DNA from: an uncultured Alphaproteobacteria bacterium
GTDB taxonomy: Bacteria; Pseudomonadota; Alphaproteobacteria; Micropepsales; Micropepsaceae
DNA length: 64,000 bases
NCBI GenBank assembly: GCA_963805005.1
Contig: CAWDSJ010000001.1
Span: 357,734 to 421,733, forward strand
Direction: 5' to 3'
A program made the position numbers and the translations under genes. Positions within the stretch are counted from its first letter, which is position 1. Every line of letters begins with the position of its first letter. Of this stretch, positions 12,766 to 21,916 are shown one piece after another. The notes beneath the pieces were generated by a model. It ran no database searches. It had not been told where the DNA came from and saw only the letters and a program-made list of their open reading frames with translations.

Positions 12766-12849
12766 GACCCGCCAAGGTTAGCGGAGCCCGTTCCAAAAGC
12801 TCAATGGATCGGCGGCCTCACCGCAGAATACGGGGCGCGCGAGAAATTG

Positions 12850-13128
12850 GGCTGCGCGAGAACGCGAAACATTCTTCCTCCCCCGTGCGAAGCATGGGGG
12901 AGGTGTCTCCCGCGGCGTTAAGCCGGGGGAGAGGGGGGCATCGATTCCCGTTTCGCGCCATTGCGCGGCTGCGCATATCGGCAAGGTCGCAAATCATTGG
13001 GATGGCATCGTCGTAGCGCCCCCCTCCTCCTTCGCTGCTCTGCAGCTTCGGAGGACTTTCGAACAAACCCGCCGAAGCTCGCGGAGCGAAGGCGGGCCCT
13101 TCGCTGCGCGAACGGGGAAGGAAGAATA
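12850..13128. repeat. Gene-less derivative of the DUF559 palindromic element, carrying a 72-bp insertion
   Basis: 12850-13015 is an inverted homolog of about 17640-17825, including the codons for MICDLADMR. 13025-13096 is a separate double-hairpin insert. Confidence 0.8.
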
Positions 13129-13240: not shown

Positions 13241-13534
13241 ATGATCGACGACCGGAGCGAAAAAATCGCCGTCCGGCGAAAGCGTTTGCGCTTTCGCTGC
13301 CATCGGCGCGGCTTCAAGGAGGTGGATTTGATCTTTGCCACCTTCGCCGAGGCCAGCCTGGCCGAGCTGGACGAACCCGGCCTCGACCAGCTCGAAATGC
13401 TGCTGGAGGCGCCGGACCACGACGTCTTCGCCTGGTTGCAGGGCGAGGCGCCGGTGCCGGCGCCATTCGATAACGCCGTATTTGCGCAGATGAGATCGCT
13501 CTGCCAGCGTAAGAGTCCGACGTGGAACGTCTAA
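13241..13534 (+). CDS. sdhE: Succinate dehydrogenase assembly factor 2 (SdhE/Sdh5)
   Basis: RRKRLRFRCHRRGFKEVDLIF with the RG(x)KE flavinylation motif; immediately upstream of mfd. Confidence 0.87.
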   Translation: MIDDRSEKIAVRRKRLRFRCHRRGFKEVDLIFATFAEASLAELDEPGLDQLEMLLEAPDHDVFAWLQGEAPVPAPFDNAVFAQMRSLCQRKSPTWNV

Positions 13535-16500
13535 GCTATATCGCCCGTACCGAAGGCCATCTGACGGTCACCGGCGCGCCGGACGGCTTCGATGCCTATC
13601 TCGCCGCCGAGGCGGCCAGACGGCGGGCCGGGCTGGTGCTGTTTGTCGCCAGCGACGATCTGCGCGCGCAATCGGCACTGGACGCCGTCCGCTTCTTTGC
13701 GCCGGACATTCCGATGCTCTTTTTCCCGGCCTGGGATTGTCTTCCTTACGACCGCGTTTCGCCCAAGCCGGACATCGAGAGCCGCCGTTCGGCTACATTG
13801 TCCGCGCTTGCAAGGCGCACGAAAAAGTCCGGGCCGGCCGTCGTCGTGACGACCGTTAATGCCCTTGTCCAAAGGGTGCCGCCGCGTTCGGTGATTGCCG
13901 AATCGAGCTTCTATGCCCGCGTGGGCGGCACAGTGGAGCATGATCGTCTCGTCGACTATCTCGTCAAGAACGGCTATGCGCGGGCCGGCACGGTGCGCGA
14001 GCCGGGCGATTTCGCGCTGCGCGGCGGCATCATCGACCTCTGGCCGCCCGGTACGGAGGAGCCGCTGCGCCTCGATTTCTTCGGCGCGACGCTCGACGCC
14101 ATCCGGCGTTTCGATGCCGATACGCAGCTGTCCTCGGAGCAGATTGCCGAGATCGAATTGCTGGCGGCGAGCGAAGTGCAGCTCGACCAGGATTCGATCA
14201 GCCGTTTTCGCGCCGGTTATGTGGCGACGTTCGGCCCGGCCGGCGACGATCCGCTTTACGAAGCGGTGAGCGCCGGCCGCAAGCACCCCGGCATGGAGCA
14301 TTGGCTGCCGCTTTTCTATCCGCAGCTCGACACGCTTTTCGATTACCTGCACCACCCCTTGATATTCTTCTCGCACCAGGCCGAGGAAGCCAAGCAGGCG
14401 CGGTTCGAGCTCATCTCCGACTATTACAGCACGCGGCGGCAGTTCTTGCAGGCCGGCCGCGACGGCGCCGAGACGGTTGGAGCAGCGCCCTACAAGCCGC
14501 TGCCGCCCGAACGTCTCTACATCACCGACGGGGAATGGAAGGCGGCTATGTCCCATCGCGCCGTCCGCGAGCTTTCGCCGTTTCAGGCGCCGGAATCGAA
14601 GCATTCCGTCGATGCAGGCGGCAGGCAGGGCCGCGATTTTGCGCCCGAGCGGACACAAGGCCGCGTCAACGTTTTCGAAGCGGCCGCCGAGCACATCAAA
14701 TCCCTGCAGCAGGCAAAAAAGCGGGTGCTGGTGGCGGCGTGGAGCGAGGGCTCGGCCGAGCGTCTCGGCGGCGTGCTGTCCGATCACGGACTTGCCGCGA
14801 TGCGCCATGTCGAAGGCTGGCAGGATGCGGCTGCGCTGCATGGCGCCGCAATCGGCGTGGGGGTCCTGGGTCTCGAGCACGGTTTCGAGGCGGACGCTTT
14901 TGCAATCGTCTCCGAGCAGGACATCCTGGGCGACCGCATGGCGCGTCCGCGGGCGCGCTCCAAGCGGGCGCAAAATTTTCTGGCCGAGGCTTCCAGTCTC
15001 GTCCCCGGCGATCTGGTCACCCATATCGAGCACGGCATCGGCCGCTACACCGGCCTTCGCACCATCGACGTGGCCGGCGCTCCGCACGATTGCCTCGAGC
15101 TGCATTATGACGGCGGCAAGCTCTTTCTGCCGGTCGAAAACATCGAGCTCTTGACGCGCTACGGCTCGGACGAGGGAACCGCACAGCTCGACCGGCTGGG
15201 CGGTAGCGGATGGCAGCAGCGCAAGGCCCGCATGAAGGCGCGCGTGCGCGAGATTGCCGCCGAGCTGATTCGGATTGCCGCCGCGCGCCAGCTCAAATCC
15301 CTGCCCGCCGTGGAGGCGCCGCAGGGTCTCTACGACGAATTCTGCGCCCGCTTCCCGTGGGCCGAGACGGAGGATCAGGACCGCGCCATCGCCGAGACGG
15401 TGGAAGATCTGGCGAACGGCCGGCCGATGGACCGTCTGGTCTGCGGCGATGTGGGTTTCGGAAAGACCGAAGTCGCGTTGCGTGCGGCCTTTGTCGAGGC
15501 GATGTCGGGCATGCAAGTTGCCGTGGTGGTGCCGACGACCCTGCTGGCGCGTCAGCATTTCCGGACCTTTGCCGAGCGCTTTCGCGGCTTTCCGATAAAA
15601 GTGCGGCAGCTGTCGCGCTTCGTCGATGCCAAGGAGGCGCGCGAAACCAAAGCGGGCCTTGCGTCCGGCGACATCGATATCGTTGTGGGCACGCATGCGC
15701 TGCTTTCGAAGACCGTGAACTTCAAGCAGCTCGGCCTCGTCATCGTCGATGAAGAGCAGCATTTCGGCGTCGCCCACAAGGAGCGGCTGAAATCGCTCAA
15801 GGCGGATGTGCATGTGCTCACGCTGACGGCCACTCCCATTCCGCGGACGCTGCAATTGGCGCTTTCGGGTGTGCGCGACCTCTCGTTGATCACCACGCCG
15901 CCGATCGATCGCCTGGCGGTGCGCACCTTCGTCACGCCGTTCGATCCGCTCGTCGTGCGGGAAGCCTTGTTGCGCGAGCATTATCGCGGCGGACAGAGCT
16001 TCTATGTCTGCCCGCGCATTGCCGACCTGCATGAGGCCGAAGAATTCCTCAAGCAGACCGTCCCTGAAGTGAAGGTGGCGGTGGGTCACGGCCAGATGGC
16101 CGCAAGCCAGCTCGAAGACATCATGACGGCATTCTACGACGGCCGGGTGGACGTGCTGATCTCCACCAACATCGTGGAAAGCGGCCTCGATATCCCGAGC
16201 GCCAACACGCTGATCGTCCACCGTGCCGACATGTTCGGTCTGGCGCAGCTCTATCAGCTGCGCGGTCGCATCGGCCGTTCCAAGCAGCGCGCCTACGCCT
16301 ATCTCACGACGCCGGCAGACCGGAAACTCACCGAGACGGCCGAACGGCGGCTGCAGGTTCTGCAGTCGCTGGATCAGCTGGGCGCGGGGTTCTCGATTGC
16401 AAGCCACGATCTGGACATCCGCGGCGCCGGCAATCTTCTCGGAGAGGAGCAGTCCGGCCATGTGCGCGAAGTGGGCATCGAGCTTTATCAGGACATGCTC

Positions 16501-17010
16501 GAAGAAGCCGTTGCGCAGCTGCGTCAGGGCACGGCCGCGGAGGAGATCGGCGAGCAGTGGTCGCCGCAGATCAATATCGGCACGGCCGTGCTCATCCCGG
16601 AGGATTACGTCGGCGATCTCAATGTGCGCATGGCGCTCTACCGGCGGCTGGCCGGGCTGCAGGACCGCGCCGAGATCGACCGCTTCGCAGCCGAGCTGAT
16701 CGATCGCTTCGGGCGGTTGCCCGAAGAGGTCAAGCACCTGCTCGACATCGTGGCGATCAAGACGCTGTGCCGGGCGGCGTCGGTCGAGAAAATCGATGCC
16801 GGGCCCAAGGGCGCCACGCTCAGCTTTCGCAACAATGCGTTTCCCAATCCCGCAGGCCTGGTGCGTCTCATTGCCGAGCACCAGTCCACCATGAGGGTGC
16901 GGCCGGATCGGAAAGTCGTCATCGCGCGCGATTGGCCCTCGCCGGAAGAACGGCTGAAGGGCACGCATGTGTTCTTGGGCCAGCTCGCCAAGCTGGCCAA
17001 AGCGGCTTAG
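13522..17010 (+). CDS. mfd: Transcription-repair coupling factor
   Basis: PAWDCLPYDRVSP, RGGIIDLWP, GDLVTHIEHGIGRY, DRLVCGDVGFGKTEVA, GLAQLYQLRGRIGRS. Confidence 0.97.
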   Translation: MERLSYIARTEGHLTVTGAPDGFDAYLAAEAARRRAGLVLFVASDDLRAQSALDAVRFFAPDIPMLFFPAWDCLPYDRVSPKPDIESRRSATLSALARRTKKSGPAVVVTTVNALVQRVPPRSVIAESSFYARVGGTVEHDRLVDYLVKNGYARAGTVREPGDFALRGGIIDLWPPGTEEPLRLDFFGATLDAIRRFDADTQLSSEQIAEIELLAASEVQLDQDSISRFRAGYVATFGPAGDDPLYEAVSAGRKHPGMEHWLPLFYPQLDTLFDYLHHPLIFFSHQAEEAKQARFELISDYYSTRRQFLQAGRDGAETVGAAPYKPLPPERLYITDGEWKAAMSHRAVRELSPFQAPESKHSVDAGGRQGRDFAPERTQGRVNVFEAAAEHIKSLQQAKKRVLVAAWSEGSAERLGGVLSDHGLAAMRHVEGWQDAAALHGAAIGVGVLGLEHGFEADAFAIVSEQDILGDRMARPRARSKRAQNFLAEASSLVPGDLVTHIEHGIGRYTGLRTIDVAGAPHDCLELHYDGGKLFLPVENIELLTRYGSDEGTAQLDRLGGSGWQQRKARMKARVREIAAELIRIAAARQLKSLPAVEAPQGLYDEFCARFPWAETEDQDRAIAETVEDLANGRPMDRLVCGDVGFGKTEVALRAAFVEAMSGMQVAVVVPTTLLARQHFRTFAERFRGFPIKVRQLSRFVDAKEARETKAGLASGDIDIVVGTHALLSKTVNFKQLGLVIVDEEQHFGVAHKERLKSLKADVHVLTLTATPIPRTLQLALSGVRDLSLITTPPIDRLAVRTFVTPFDPLVVREALLREHYRGGQSFYVCPRIADLHEAEEFLKQTVPEVKVAVGHGQMAASQLEDIMTAFYDGRVDVLISTNIVESGLDIPSANTLIVHRADMFGLAQLYQLRGRIGRSKQRAYAYLTTPADRKLTETAERRLQVLQSLDQLGAGFSIASHDLDIRGAGNLLGEEQSGHVREVGIELYQDMLEEAVAQLRQGTAAEEIGEQWSPQINIGTAVLIPEDYVGDLNVRMALYRRLAGLQDRAEIDRFAAELIDRFGRLPEEVKHLLDIVAIKTLCRAASVEKIDAGPKGATLSFRNNAFPNPAGLVRLIAEHQSTMRVRPDRKVVIARDWPSPEERLKGTHVFLGQLAKLAKAA

Positions 17011-17016
17011 GCGTAA

Positions 17017-17063
17017 GCGCACGACATTCTTCCTCCCCCATGCTGCGCACGGGGGAGGAAGAA
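17017..17063. repeat. Palindromic REP (CTTCCTCCCCC family) after the mfd stop
   Basis: Perfect 13-bp stem TTCTTCCTCCCCC / GGGGGAGGAAGAA. 17017-17039 is the exact reverse complement of 17791-17813. Confidence 0.85.
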
Positions 17064-17177
17064 GCCGGGCGGCGCGTCGAGCCGGCGATCGTCAATCTGT
17101 TCGTAGGTCGCCTGGGCCGGGCCGTGACCCGGCGCGACAGCTTCAGGCTGTTCGGGCTTTAGCGCGATACCCACACT

Positions 17178-17802
17178 CTTCCTCCCCCGTGCGCAGCATG
17201 GGGGAGGTGGCGAGCTCCCCCGGCTTAAAGCCGGGGGAGCGAGACGGAGGGGGCACGACCGACAGGCATCGATACAGTTTCGGCAATCTCCGACGACGTC
17301 TTGCTCGCACGCTATCTTGCCCTTCGCTCAGGCAATCGCCATGGCATACGTCGTACCGAAAACGCTCGCTCGCGCACGCGAACTCCGGAAAAGGCTTACC
17401 GATGCCGAAACCATCCTATGGTTCCGTCTGCGAGGCCTTCAAGGCATTCGATTCCGGAGGCAGCATCCTGTCGGACCGTTCATCGCCGATTTTGCCTGCA
17501 CGCGCGCCCGTCTGATCGTGGAAATTGACGGCGCCACCCACGGAACCGAAGCCGAGCGGAGCTATGACGCACGCCGGGACTTGTTTCTCGGAAGCCGCGG
17601 CTGGCGGGTTGTACGAATTCCGAATGTGGACATCTATGAACGCTCCGACGACGTCGTCTCAATGATTTGCGACCTTGCCGATATGCGCATTCGCGCAAAG
17701 GTACGAGGCGGGATTTGATGCCCCCTCCGTCTCACTCCCCCGGCTTTAAGCCGGGGTCGCTCGACACCTCCCCCATTCGCTCTTGCGAACGGGGGAGGAA
17801 GA
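17178..17802. mobile_element. DUF559 gene bracketed by about 80-bp inverted double-hairpin arms (REPtron-like unit)
   Basis: Arms 17178-17255 and 17719-17802 are near-identical inverted copies, each with two hairpins. Mobility is inferred, not shown. Confidence 0.6.
17341..17718 (+). CDS. DUF559 (Vsr-like / PD-(D/E)XK) endonuclease
   Basis: ARELRKRLTDAETILW, FRRQHPVGPFIADFAC, LIVEIDGATH, RDLFLGSRGWRVVRIPN. Confidence 0.88.
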   Translation: MAYVVPKTLARARELRKRLTDAETILWFRLRGLQGIRFRRQHPVGPFIADFACTRARLIVEIDGATHGTEAERSYDARRDLFLGSRGWRVVRIPNVDIYERSDDVVSMICDLADMRIRAKVRGGI

Positions 17803-17954
17803 ATGTCGTGCGCTCTCGCGCGGCTCCATCCCTCCGGCGTCTCTCCGCACTCCGCATTGAGAAACGTGACACAAACGAACCCTAAAATGCGATTGCCCTG
17901 CTGTCTCGGGCTTATCGGATTGCACGCATGACTTCCAATGTGTATTCTTGCGCC

Positions 17955-18167
17955 ATGAAAGATCAGATCATCACTCGCGATCCGGACGTCATGGGTGGAA
18001 CCGCCGTGTTCCGCGGCACGCGCGTCCCTGTGCAGACGCTTCTCGACTATCTGGAGGCAGGCGACTCGATCGACGAGTTCCTTGCGGGCTTTCCCAACGT
18101 CACCCGCGCACAGGTGGTCGCCTTCCTGGAAAGCGCAACCGACCGGTTGGTCGAATCGGTTTCGTGA
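17955..18167 (+). CDS. DUF433 antitoxin
   Basis: IITRDPDVMGGTAVFRGTRVPVQTLLDYLEAGDSIDEFLAGFP. Confidence 0.88.
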   Translation: MKDQIITRDPDVMGGTAVFRGTRVPVQTLLDYLEAGDSIDEFLAGFPNVTRAQVVAFLESATDRLVESVS

Positions 18168-18484
18168 GGGTTTTTCTCGACGAATGCGTTGATTGGCGTT
18201 TGTCGCGCGCGATTTCCGGACATGACGTCCGAACTGCCCGCCAAATGGGTTGGACGGCGATCAAGAACGGAGAATTGCTGAGGCTTGCTTCCGAACTGTT
18301 CGAGGTCTTTGTGACCGTGGATCGAAACCTTGCGTTTCAGCAGCCGATGGACTCGCTACGGATTTCGGTCATTGTGCTCCGTGCCAACTCAAACCGGCTC
18401 GCCGATTTGATGCCGCTTGTGCCGGCGCTTCACGCCGCCGTCGCAGCCACAACGGGTGGCACCGTAAGCGTGATTGGCAATTAA
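18164..18484 (+). CDS. DUF5615 PIN-like toxin (VapC45-like)
   Basis: VFLDECV, GHDVRT, FVTVDRNL; GTGA overlap with the DUF433 gene. Confidence 0.85.
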   Translation: MRVFLDECVDWRLSRAISGHDVRTARQMGWTAIKNGELLRLASELFEVFVTVDRNLAFQQPMDSLRISVIVLRANSNRLADLMPLVPALHAAVAATTGGTVSVIGN

Positions 18485-18662
18485 GCGCCGACAGTCGACA
18501 CGCGTGTCGATCTCTGTATGGAAACATTACGTAATTCACGTCGACAACGAAGATGACCCGGCCTCCTTGGGACCGCGGGCTTCCAGCCCGCAATTAATCG
18601 TGCCACCCCATCACCGTATTCTGCTACAATGTAAATGATAGTACGATTTCGAGGCTCCCGGC

Positions 18663-19940
18663 ATGAAAGTCTTTTGGTCGTGGCAGTCCGATACACCAGG
18701 AAAGATCGGACGCCATTTTGTCCGCGACGCCTTGCAGGCGGCGATCGAGCAGCTGAAGGAAGCGCCCGAGGTCGAGGAGCCGACAGAGCGCGAAACGCGA
18801 TCGGCAGTGCATCTCGATCAAGACCGCAAAGGGATTTCGGGTAGCCCTGATTTGGCCCGAGTGATCCTCGAGAAAATCGAAGCTGCCGCGGTCTTCGTCG
18901 CGGATGTGACGGCCGTGGGCTTTGTTTCAAACGAGAAGCAAGGGCCGGCGAAGAAGCTCATCAATCCCAATGTCGCAATAGAGCTTGGGTACGCTCTTCA
19001 TGCCCTCACCGACCGCGCGCTTCTCATGGTGATGAACGAACACTACGGCAGCCGCGCTGACCTTCCTTTCGACCTGCAATCTAAAGCAGGCCCGCTTATG
19101 TATTCCTTGGCTCCTGACGCCGACAGACAGACAGTCGCAGCAGCATCCCGGACACTCGCCGCGCGCCTCAAGGAGGCTCTAGAGCCGTTCATTGTGCAAA
19201 GAGTTGAGCAAATCCGCCAAGAACATCCGTTTCCCGAGGCACCGGCCAAAGACGGGCCAGCGAGATTTCGCGGCCCAGGAGAACCAATAGGCACATTGAA
19301 AGACTTGCTGCCGTTCGGCCCCAATGCCGGGAAGAGCATCACGCTTCGTCCTGGCCCGGCGACATGGCTTCGTCTGATGCCCACCTTCGATCGCGGTCAG
19401 ACCTGGACGGCCGAGGAATTACAGGAGGTATCCCGCAGAGGAAATCTCCCCTTGCAGCCGTTCGTGTGGAACACTTTCCGCACCGTGCGCGGCGCGGACG
19501 GCATCGGCTGTTGCGATCTTCCCGGCGATGCACAGGAAACGAACTCTTTAGCCTTTGCGTTCGAAACGGGTGAAGTATGGGCGATCGATACCTGGGTATT
19601 GGGCTCGCATCCGGCCGAAATTTTTGTCGGCGAAATCGAGCGAGGGTGGCTCGATCGATTCGGGGGCTATGCGGCGTTCCTCCGCGGCCTCAAGATAGAA
19701 CCTCCTTATCGTTGGATCGCTGGTATGGCAGGCGTGAACCACTGGCGCCTGCGATACCCTCTCGCGCGAGGTCAGATGCAACTTGCCGAATGGTCAGGCC
19801 CGGAATGCCTAGCCGAGCAAATTGTGGTCGACGGCACCTTCGCCGGCAAAGAGACGCCGCTTGCCGCGCTGCTGCCGTTTTTCGAGGCGATCTATAAGAG
19901 ATGCGGCATGCGCCGCCCCGACTACTTGCCGCGAGAATGA
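18663..19940 (+). CDS. Two-domain protein: N-terminal TIR/nucleoside-deoxyribosyltransferase-like domain plus uncharacterised C-terminal domain; candidate defence protein
   Basis: VFWSWQSD, ILEKIEAAAVFVADVT, NPNVAIELGYA (putative catalytic Glu), LPFDL. Confidence 0.6.
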   Translation: MKVFWSWQSDTPGKIGRHFVRDALQAAIEQLKEAPEVEEPTERETRSAVHLDQDRKGISGSPDLARVILEKIEAAAVFVADVTAVGFVSNEKQGPAKKLINPNVAIELGYALHALTDRALLMVMNEHYGSRADLPFDLQSKAGPLMYSLAPDADRQTVAAASRTLAARLKEALEPFIVQRVEQIRQEHPFPEAPAKDGPARFRGPGEPIGTLKDLLPFGPNAGKSITLRPGPATWLRLMPTFDRGQTWTAEELQEVSRRGNLPLQPFVWNTFRTVRGADGIGCCDLPGDAQETNSLAFAFETGEVWAIDTWVLGSHPAEIFVGEIERGWLDRFGGYAAFLRGLKIEPPYRWIAGMAGVNHWRLRYPLARGQMQLAEWSGPECLAEQIVVDGTFAGKETPLAALLPFFEAIYKRCGMRRPDYLPRE

Positions 19941-20083
19941 CTGAAGCCAGCGTGGTCATTTGGCGCGCCGCCGACGGCAATCGACCGGATGCTGGTGTCG
20001 GTGCACCAGGCGGCGACGCTGGAATGCCGGGACATGAAATGCATTTTCCCAACGGCCTTGAGTTTCGGCGCGGACGACGAATG

Positions 20084-21916
20084 TCAACCAACCAGTGGAT
20101 CAAACGCCATCACGGTGTCGGCGCCGGCCTGGATGCGTTCCAGCAGCATGGGGCATTCGGGAATCATGCGCTCCATCCAATATCGCGCCGAGACCAGCTT
20201 GGATTCGTAAAACGCCTTGTTCGCCGGAGCCGCCGCCAGCTTGGAGAATGACAGCTTGGCCATCCGCGCCCACATCCAGCCGACAGTGACGATGCCCATG
20301 AGGCGCAGGTAATCGACGGCGCCGGCGCCGGCATTGTTCGGGTTGGCGACTCCGTTCTGCGCCAGCCACATCGTCGCCTGCTGCAAATTATCGAGACCGC
20401 GTTTCACCGGCTTCACGAACGGCGCGAGCTTCTCGTCGGCATCGTTTTCGCCGAGCCAGCCAGACACGAGCGAGAAGTATGCCAAGGGTGCTGCGCCGCC
20501 TTTCCGGCCAAGCTTGCGGCCCACGAGGTCCATCGCCTGCACGCCGTTGGCGCCTTCGTAGGTTTGGCTGATGCGCGCATCGCGCACGAATTGCTCCATG
20601 CCGTTGTCGCGGATGTAGCCATGGCCGCCCCAGCACTGCATGGCCATGTTGGCGGCTTCGAATCCCATATCGGTGAAGAAGGCCTTGATGACGGGAGTCA
20701 TCAGGTCGGAAAGCTGACCCGCCGTCTCGCGCTCGGGACGGTTAGATTCGGCGATCGACATGTTGAGCGTGGTCCACAGCACCACGGCGCGCGCGCCTTC
20801 AATGAAGGACCGGCAATGCAGCAGCATCCGTCTGATGTCGGGATGCACGATGAGAAGATCAGCCGGCTTGTCGGGCTCCTTGGGGCCGGTCAGCGCATGA
20901 CCGACACGGCGTTCGAGCGAGTAGGCGAGAGCGTTTTGATAGGCTACCTCCGCAAGGCTGATGCCCTGCACGCCGACGCCCAGCCGCGCCGCGTTCATCA
21001 TGCCGAACATGCCGCGCATGCCGGCCGAAGCCGAGCGGGGCTCGCCCGGCTTGGGCGCTTCCGGCTTGGGGCCGAGCCGCCAGGCGATCGCATCGTCGAA
21101 ATTGAGCACGGCGGTTGCGTTGGCCTTGATGCCCATTTTCTTTTCGATGCCGCCGCAGGAGACGCCGTTGCGCGGTCCCGGCGTGCCGTCGTCTTTCACG
21201 ATGTATTTGGGCACCATGAAGAAGTTCACGGTGGACAGATCGTCATAGATGTGCCCGTGCTCGTCGGGGATCTTGGCGATGACCATGTGGATGATGTTGT
21301 CGGCCAGATCGTGCTCGCCGCCGGAGATGAAGATCTTGGTGCCGTTCATGCGATAGGTGCCGTCGGCCTGTTCGACGGCGCGGGTCTTCATCAGGCGCAA
21401 ATCCGTGCCGCAATGCGGCTCGGTCAGGCACATCGTGCCGGTCCATTCCCCCGTCACCATCTTGGGAACGACGTGCTCCTTCATCCAGGCCGCGCCGGTT
21501 TCCATAAGCGCCCTGTACGCGGCCACGGTAAGCCCCGGATACATCGAGAAGGCCTGATTGGCCGATTGCGCCATCTCGCCCACGATCACCGTGGCGAATT
21601 GGGGCAGATCGGCGCCGCCGAATTTTGCGGGCGCACCGAGCCCGGCCCAGCCGCCCTCGACATAGGCGTCATAAGCCTCCTTGAATCCCTTGGGCGTGCG
21701 CACGACGCCATTCTCGAAGTGGCATCCTTCCTCGTCGCCGGACTGGTTGAGTGGCTGCAGCACTTCCTCGCAGAGCTTCGCCGCACTTGCCAGCACGTCG
21801 TCCATCAGCTCGGCGGATACGTCGGCGAATTGCGGCAGGTCGTTCTGCTTGTCGAGCTCGAACAGTTCCCGGATCAGGAATTTGTATTCGTCGAGCGGCG
21901 CACGATAGGCGGGCAT
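20084..21916 (-). CDS. Acyl-CoA dehydrogenase (long, DmdC-like subfamily)
   Basis: WTGTMCLTEPHCGTDL, GTKIFISGGEHDL, EKKMGIKANAT, WGGHGYI, YEGANGVQAMDL. Confidence 0.92.
   Translation of the reverse strand: MPAYRAPLDEYKFLIRELFELDKQNDLPQFADVSAELMDDVLASAAKLCEEVLQPLNQSGDEEGCHFENGVVRTPKGFKEAYDAYVEGGWAGLGAPAKFGGADLPQFATVIVGEMAQSANQAFSMYPGLTVAAYRALMETGAAWMKEHVVPKMVTGEWTGTMCLTEPHCGTDLRLMKTRAVEQADGTYRMNGTKIFISGGEHDLADNIIHMVIAKIPDEHGHIYDDLSTVNFFMVPKYIVKDDGTPGPRNGVSCGGIEKKMGIKANATAVLNFDDAIAWRLGPKPEAPKPGEPRSASAGMRGMFGMMNAARLGVGVQGISLAEVAYQNALAYSLERRVGHALTGPKEPDKPADLLIVHPDIRRMLLHCRSFIEGARAVVLWTTLNMSIAESNRPERETAGQLSDLMTPVIKAFFTDMGFEAANMAMQCWGGHGYIRDNGMEQFVRDARISQTYEGANGVQAMDLVGRKLGRKGGAAPLAYFSLVSGWLGENDADEKLAPFVKPVKRGLDNLQQATMWLAQNGVANPNNAGAGAVDYLRLMGIVTVGWMWARMAKLSFSKLAAAPANKAFYESKLVSARYWMERMIPECPMLLERIQAGADTVMAFDPLVG

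Follow-up and report, generated by a model that had tools for sequence, protein, structure and literature searches.

A TIR-like head on an orphan C-terminal module: a predicted single-protein immune effector from a Micropepsaceae genome

The window, a stretch of 64,000 nucleotides from the genome of an uncultured member of the Micropepsaceae (Alphaproteobacteria), carries behind mfd (13522-17010) a repeat-flanked nuclease gene, a toxin–antitoxin (TA) pair and a gene for a two-part protein of 425 aa, a neighbourhood that an earlier note on this DNA had described accurately:

17198..17776, forward strand: cassette of a DUF559 (Vsr-like) nuclease, gene at 17317-17718 (PF04480, 3.3e-30; inverted repeat I2)
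17928-18167 and 18164-18484, forward strand: DUF433 antitoxin-like gene and DUF5615/PIN-like toxin gene (PF04255, 1.3e-20; PF18480, 1.7e-5)
18663..19940, forward strand: whole gene under study, encoding a TIR-like head, a linker helix and an orphan C-terminal module (ORF list, 425 aa)

Inverted repeats of 58 nt, 93% complementary to each other, enclose the nuclease gene exactly, and we discarded this gene as a partner of the TIR-like gene on finding it to be a repeat-flanked cassette of its own. Related copies of the repeat, at 12836-13018 and 17011-17207, bracket sdhE-mfd. The DUF433 and DUF5615 genes overlap by 4 nt and form a TA system complete on its own, probably independent of the TIR-like gene given that no conserved linkage between them was seen in other genomes. 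GC content around the gene is 0.58-0.60, against 0.64-0.66 in the flanks. Across the genus, mfd and an acyl-CoA dehydrogenase gene are syntenic (window 17010-20084 compared with loci L097 and L099-L102), and the interval between them, 3 to 7.4 kb long and >9 kb in two genomes, is a variable region, a recombination or insertion hotspot, in which each congener has unrelated cargo of its own (epimerases, a phosphodiesterase, an adenosine deaminase, a FIST sensor kinase, an IS integrase). The site after mfd is variable, and repeat-bearing as proposed, but its reading as a defence island is not supported: the congeners' cargo is metabolic or regulatory with no defence genes among it, and we rejected a conserved defence hotspot at this position.

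The ORF at 18663-19940 is real and under purifying selection on both of its domains. It starts with ATG, preceded by GAGG at 9-nt spacing, and comparison with an 86%-identical relative (dS 0.37, unsaturated) gave a dN/dS of 0.20 for the gene as a whole, with values of 0.16 in its N-terminal and 0.23 in its C-terminal part. A whole-library search with the protein returned 4,522 clusters (50% identity) at E<=1e-3, or 492 at the stricter limit of E<=1e-30, and a word search at least 1,174 homologues; with this many homologue clusters and such a dN/dS, the motif pattern lies far beyond chance, and every motif quoted in the earlier note was present in the ORF. No RNA-seq run containing the gene was found, the sole matching runs being two metagenome DNA runs, and neither an Rfam match nor a sigma-70-like promoter was found around it. 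The whole protein matched nothing in PADLOC, NCBIfam or PHROGs, and a profile search of the PDB with the whole-protein alignment found no significant match (ribosomal protein L23, E 0.43). The AF2 model of the whole protein (pLDDT 88, pTM 0.74) bears out the two-part architecture first drawn by eye, with an N-terminal domain of ~150 aa, a helix running to residue 187 and then a separate alpha/beta module of ~235 aa:

18663..19112, forward strand: TIR/NDT-type domain, residues 1-150 (Foldseek of the AF2 model; PF10137 similarity)
18669..18692, forward strand: first-strand motif VFWSWQSD, residues 3-10 (F4, W7, Q8, S9 and D10 invariant; strand E2-6 in the model)
18963..18995, forward strand: motif NPNVAIELGYA, residues 101-111 (N101, N103, V104, E107, G109 and Y110 invariant; Glu107 codon at 18981-18983)
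19125..19223, forward strand: long linker helix, residues 155-187 (DSSP on the AF2 model)
19230..19937, forward strand: C-terminal alpha/beta module, residues 190-425 (AF2, modelled alone)
19569..19580, forward strand: hairpin turn G303-E304-V-W306 in FAFETGEVWAID (invariant columns in alignment A1 and mixed-head alignment A6)

The N-terminal head opens with MKVFWSWQSD (residues 1-10), with EKIEAAAVFVADVT at residues 70-83, and in an alignment of 32 sequences reaching down to 38% identity (A1) its invariant residues were F4, W7, Q8, S9, D10, R17, D52, D81, N101, N103, E107, G109, Y110 and N125. The AF2 model shows the flavodoxin-like parallel beta-sheet fold of the TIR superfamily (Pfam clan STIR). 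Its best Foldseek match in the PDB was the TIR domain of TIR-STING (7un8, E 1.4e-4; also 9lmq), followed by nucleoside deoxyribosyltransferases (NDTs; 6qai, 8pqt, 7o62), DNPH1 (4kxm), SARM1 and plant TIRs; Foldseek probabilities were 0.96 to 1.0 for the NDT and DNPH1 structures and 0.9-1.0 for the TIR domains of TIR-STING, SARM1, RPS4/RRS1 and RUN1. The NDT similarity is at the level of fold only, and among 32 members of the family the profiles for DUF4062 (PF13271), TIR_2 and NDT (PF05014, PF15891) gave no match at E<=1. PF10137 scored 13.6 bits (E 0.069) against the window protein, below its gathering threshold of 24.7 bits, with sub-threshold matches in 25 of 32 homologues (best 5.8e-5). 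As PF10137 stays under its threshold and the DUF4062, TIR_2 and NDT profiles do not match, we place the head in the TIR/NDT superfamily as a sister to PF10137 (CAP12/Pycsar TIR), outside any named family.

The conserved glutamate of the head, Glu107, lies in helix 102-115 of the model, which follows the central strand, and the catalytic glutamates of TIR domains sit in the helix after the central strand. A profile of the N-terminal domain matched PycTIR (8jsj) weakly in the PDB (E 0.67), aligning Glu107 of NVAIELGYA with the Glu of NVHLEFG, while the ELGYA context is one that we take to resemble the nucleophile motif of NDTs. Glu107 is a predicted catalytic residue, whose equivalence to the TIR glutamate is suggested by weak sequence matches and by its position in the secondary structure. 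AF2 and Foldseek agree with the TIR/NDT-type fold that had been proposed for this part of the protein, and the glutamate singled out with it is invariant.

Behind the head, the linker helix (residues 155-187) may be a stalk or an oligomerisation element, by analogy with the stalk of Swarozyc. The C-terminal module (C-module) folds confidently by itself (AF2 of the module alone, pLDDT 95.3, pTM 0.91). Foldseek found nothing significant for it in the PDB (best E 0.033, probability 0.13, TM about 0.2) or among the viral structures of BFVD (best E 1.9e-3, TM 0.23), and we rejected homology with the topologically similar TBP and AdoMetDC, to which the matches were faint (TM about 0.2, probability <=0.33). 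Pfam, NCBIfam, PADLOC and PHROGs gave no significant match; neither Pfam nor PDB structures showed a likeness to the cyclic-nucleotide sensor domains SAVED, STING, CNB and PF18178, and no CARF structure in the PDB matched. In all the catalogues searched, the domain hence keeps the description "uncharacterised" that it was given at the outset. The resemblance to Schlafen/AlbA_2 proteins once suspected in it was not found, as none of the 250+ C-module proteins surveyed had such a head (no PF04326 in the precomputed Pfam assignments of 109 + 162 proteins) and the module itself has no Pfam match. Its invariant residues in the 32-sequence alignment were P240, G303, E304, W306 and P348. In the mixed-head alignment (A6), R237, P240 (WLRLMP), G303, E304 and W306 are invariant across all head types, which points to a site that belongs to the module itself. 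This conservation makes the G303-E304-W306 hairpin, together with R237 and P240, a candidate for such a functional site.

The strongest evidence on the role of the C-module comes from its partner heads, which we surveyed by searches restricted to the C-module and by a mixed-head profile search whose extra proteins all carried the module (91 of 91). The commonest head is the TIR-like type of the window protein, which forms the majority; the module also follows heads assigned to PF10137 and canonical TIR_2 domains (PF13676). PNP_UDP_1 precedes it in about 80 proteins, some of them from cultured Bradyrhizobium and Tardiphaga, and further partners are Hypoth_Ymh, a HEPN-like domain with a weak match to the PADLOC model Aga_HEPN, two heads of HNH-nuclease type and, in one protein, an XRE HTH. 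Several of these heads match models of CBASS effectors: the PNP heads that of the PN-superfamily effector (1e-9 to 1e-15), an HNH head those of the endonuclease and SAVED-HNH (2.6e-26) and one TIR-like head that of the TIR effector (1.3e-4). The position of the C-module is that which SAVED or STING takes in CBASS effectors. What survives of the earlier suggestion of a phage sensor is thus a shared, sensor- or regulator-like module behind interchangeable heads, but not its link to Schlafen/AlbA_2.

Some architectures in this survey departed from the two-part plan. Three PNP-headed proteins, P0322 (664 aa), P0329 (784 aa) and P0331 (770 aa), have a further 150-280 N-terminal residues, which may be an additional domain or adaptor. 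Forty-nine proteins that appeared to hold the N-terminal module only, and hence perhaps a second tail family, turned out to end in the C-module after all, in a divergent branch of it (hhalign probability 100%, E 7e-40). Conjugative plasmids of enterobacteria (20 records from Providencia, nine from Escherichia and four from Proteus) encode a hypothetical protein of 275 aa that has the same TIR-like module as its C-terminal half (36% identity over residues 1-173), set behind a different N-terminal part of ~114 aa. On the E. coli plasmid pETEC_35 (NC_009787.1 27303-28130; L010:5659-6486) its gene lies between a RelE/ParE TA pair and repA, offering an experimentally tractable relative native to E. 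coli.

The surroundings of homologues are enriched for defence genes, as the earlier note's placing of the gene in a defence context would have it. At 37 loci, the four ORFs flanking the gene (two per side; 148 in all) matched 133 PADLOC families at E<=1e-5, against 24 mostly generic families for 148 control ORFs called identically in arbitrarily placed regions from 23 of these genomes (23 regions against 37), a contrast that is clear but crude, as several models can match one protein and so inflate the family counts. The matches in the neighbourhoods included Olokun OloA/B (5.5e-67, 6.6e-191), a type I restriction enzyme (1.3e-135), AbiEii (3e-91), PDC-S19, DrmD, SoFic and PD-Lambda-3.

On balance we think it probable that the gene encodes an autonomous single-protein immune effector of abortive-infection type, its activity being predicted. 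Several observations speak against an immune role: the protein matches no PADLOC model, no copy was found on a phage, many homologues have housekeeping surroundings (one is a solitary insertion between dnaN and recF) and the congeners' cargo in the mfd interval is metabolic. We propose more tentatively, as a reading with slightly less than an even chance, that the C-module is an undescribed autonomous infection-sensing domain that replaces SAVED or STING and defines a family of cyclase-free one-protein switches, with R237, G303-E304 and W306 as the site of trigger binding or activation; this would extend to TIR-like, TIR_2, Cap17-like PNP, Cap5-like HNH and HEPN-like Ymh heads, and to many phyla as well as conjugative plasmids. 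Three other explanations were weighed, each of them contradicted by part of the evidence.

The first of these draws on the distribution of the gene, which is stand-alone, patchy and horizontally spread. One of 36 other genomes of the genus has it, in a copy just 41% identical, and of about 185,000 species genomes, 289 had matches, spread over Alphaproteobacteria, Acidobacteriota, Deltaproteobacteria, Nitrospirota, Planctomycetota, Chlamydiota and CPR bacteria. The family occurs on 66 plasmids (54 conjugative), whereas phage records and genomes yielded no copy. One homologue sits in an island with a P4-like integrase, AlpA and a primase, others beside resolvase and integrase fragments or IS elements; in the closest relative a resolvase gene overlaps by 4 nt, and TA pairs of ParE, PIN, Fic and HigB kinds often lie nearby. 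The plasmids, the resolvase overlap, the adjoining integrases, IS elements and Cas1-like gene (see below) and the TA pairs would all suit a conflict module with a function other than anti-phage defence, a toxic effector that maintains a plasmid or mobile element or excludes competing ones. Against this, no antitoxin or immunity gene is conserved beside the gene, and no partner of any kind recurs across 45+ loci, in contrast to the conserved adjacent antitoxin by which type II TA toxins are recognised; no secretion signal or delivery domain was seen; and many copies are chromosomal and solitary. We regard a conflict module as unlikely.

Two of these mobile contexts deserve mention in their own right. 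At L012:10355-12050, directly downstream of a TIR-like gene, a DUF938 gene is seemingly split by a small insertion with a ParE-toxin TA pair. A Cas1-like protein of 552 aa with an N-terminal HTH is encoded on the reverse strand at L008:5454-7112 and L016:9472-10837, directly adjoining two different C-module genes, one with a PNP head (L008) and one with a TIR-like head (L016). Identity between the two copies is 57-87%, that of L016 looks frameshifted, and L008 contains two further fragments of the gene. It behaves like a mobile-element gene of Cas1-solo or casposase type that may have the effectors as cargo, and a link to CRISPR suggested by the "Cas1" neighbours was dropped once these proved to be this one HTH-Cas1-like gene family and its extra fragments.

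Because the C-module takes the position of SAVED or STING in CBASS effectors, we examined whether it depends on a signal generator. The module could be a second-messenger receptor, served in trans by an unlinked Pycsar-type cyclase, TIR, Cas10, mCpol or other enzyme, and the PNP, HNH, TIR, HEPN and HTH heads are indeed the set found on SAVED, STING and CARF sensors, while TIR-STING and PycTIR, the closest TIR relatives, are ligand-activated. Yet no CD-NTase (SMODS) was found in 32 of 37 carrier genomes; the other five had a CD-NTase-like match (four above the cut-off), and the two strongest lay on another contig or at a distance of >1 Mb from the gene. In the complete genome to which the window belongs, no SMODS, TIR_2 or ThsB-type TIR was found, and its sole PF10137-like signal is the gene at 18663-19940; no cyclase was among the 25 most frequent neighbour families listed; and the fold of the module matches no SAVED, STING or CARF structure in the PDB. 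The gene thus has neither the cyclase operon nor the recognised cyclic-nucleotide sensor that mark CBASS and Pycsar. With CD-NTases scarce or distant and no neighbour conserved, an autonomous sensor is the better reading, and a receptor of a signal made in trans appears more doubtful still than a conflict module. Least probable of all is a regulated housekeeping or salvage N-glycosidase akin to NDTs, LOG or MTA nucleosidase, in which the C-module would bind a metabolite as an allosteric domain. In its favour, the head is like NDTs and DNPH1 in fold and ELGYA motif, PNP-headed relatives are annotated as MTA/SAH nucleosidases and metabolic genes occur at many loci and in the congeners' interval. 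Against it, the module also follows heads with no role in salvage (HNH nucleases, a HEPN-like domain), its PNP heads match the CBASS immune PNP model, and the gene is rare among congeners and has neighbours enriched for defence genes.

The autonomous immune effector could work as follows, with the substrate, trigger, oligomerisation and protective phenotype as its inferred parts. In the resting state the C-module would hold the TIR-like head inactive. A cue of infection, which is more likely to be a protein or nucleic acid of the phage than a cyclic nucleotide made by the host, would meet the C-module and cause a conformational change or oligomerisation, probably through the long linker helix, and oligomerisation would bring the TIR-like heads together. 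Binding of the trigger would in this way release a TIR-type N-glycosidase activity through Glu107, with NAD+ as the likeliest substrate, and depletion of the metabolite would arrest growth of the infected cell. Oligomerisation and N-glycosidase activity are proposed here by analogy with Swarozyc/NIR, an analogy supported by the TIR-STING-like head and by its PNP, HNH and HEPN-like alternatives.

Single-protein switches that join effector and sensor are known; what is new here is a candidate sensor domain that matches nothing in the libraries searched. If confirmed, it would add a sensor for TIR, PNP and HNH effectors to SAVED, STING, CARF, STAND/Avs, pAgo and the auxiliary domain of Swarozyc, and would show killing heads of CBASS type rewired to a detector that needs no cyclase. 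The family is large, with thousands of clusters at 50% identity, and as it is absent from PADLOC 2.0.0, censuses of defence systems are likely to overlook it, most of all among Alphaproteobacteria and Acidobacteriota of soil. The trigger of the C-module, once found, would reveal a new route by which bacteria recognise infection, and the compact two-domain design should be handy for structural and engineering work.

Among known systems, PycTIR and Cap12 (TIR-STING) share with the window protein the TIR fold, TIR-STING being the best structural match of the head, the motif NV..E(L/F)G with its conserved Glu, and the joining of an N-terminal effector to a C-terminal regulatory domain. In contrast to them, the window protein falls under the PF10137 cut-off and has no STING or cyclic-nucleotide-binding domain, and its gene lies outside a cyclase operon, in a family most of whose carrier genomes are without a CD-NTase. 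NDTs and DNPH1 resemble the head in fold (Foldseek), but the head has no Pfam NDT match, its first strand VFWSWQSD looks TIR-like, and it is fused to a large extra module in a gene that is accessory, not housekeeping. With Cap17 (PNP), Cap5 (HNH-SAVED) and TIR-SAVED of CBASS, the resemblance lies in the same head families on sister C-module proteins, whereas the C-module is not SAVED, STING or PF18178 and is not part of a CD-NTase operon. Swarozyc/NIR unites on one chain a TIR-like head (DUF4062), an auxiliary domain and helical stalks, and this protein is inactive until a phage portal assembles an NADase complex that depletes NAD+ (bioRxiv 10.64898/2026.05.01.722283; 10.64898/2026.09.04.749371). 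The window family differs from it in having no DUF4062 match (E<=1, 32 members) and another auxiliary domain. The two have in common a TIR-like head with a Glu (catalytic in Swarozyc, predicted to be so here), a helical stalk and an auxiliary C-terminal domain, all in one gene, together with a patchy, horizontally transferred distribution, and by this analogy Swarozyc/NIR appears to be the closest functional counterpart in the literature.
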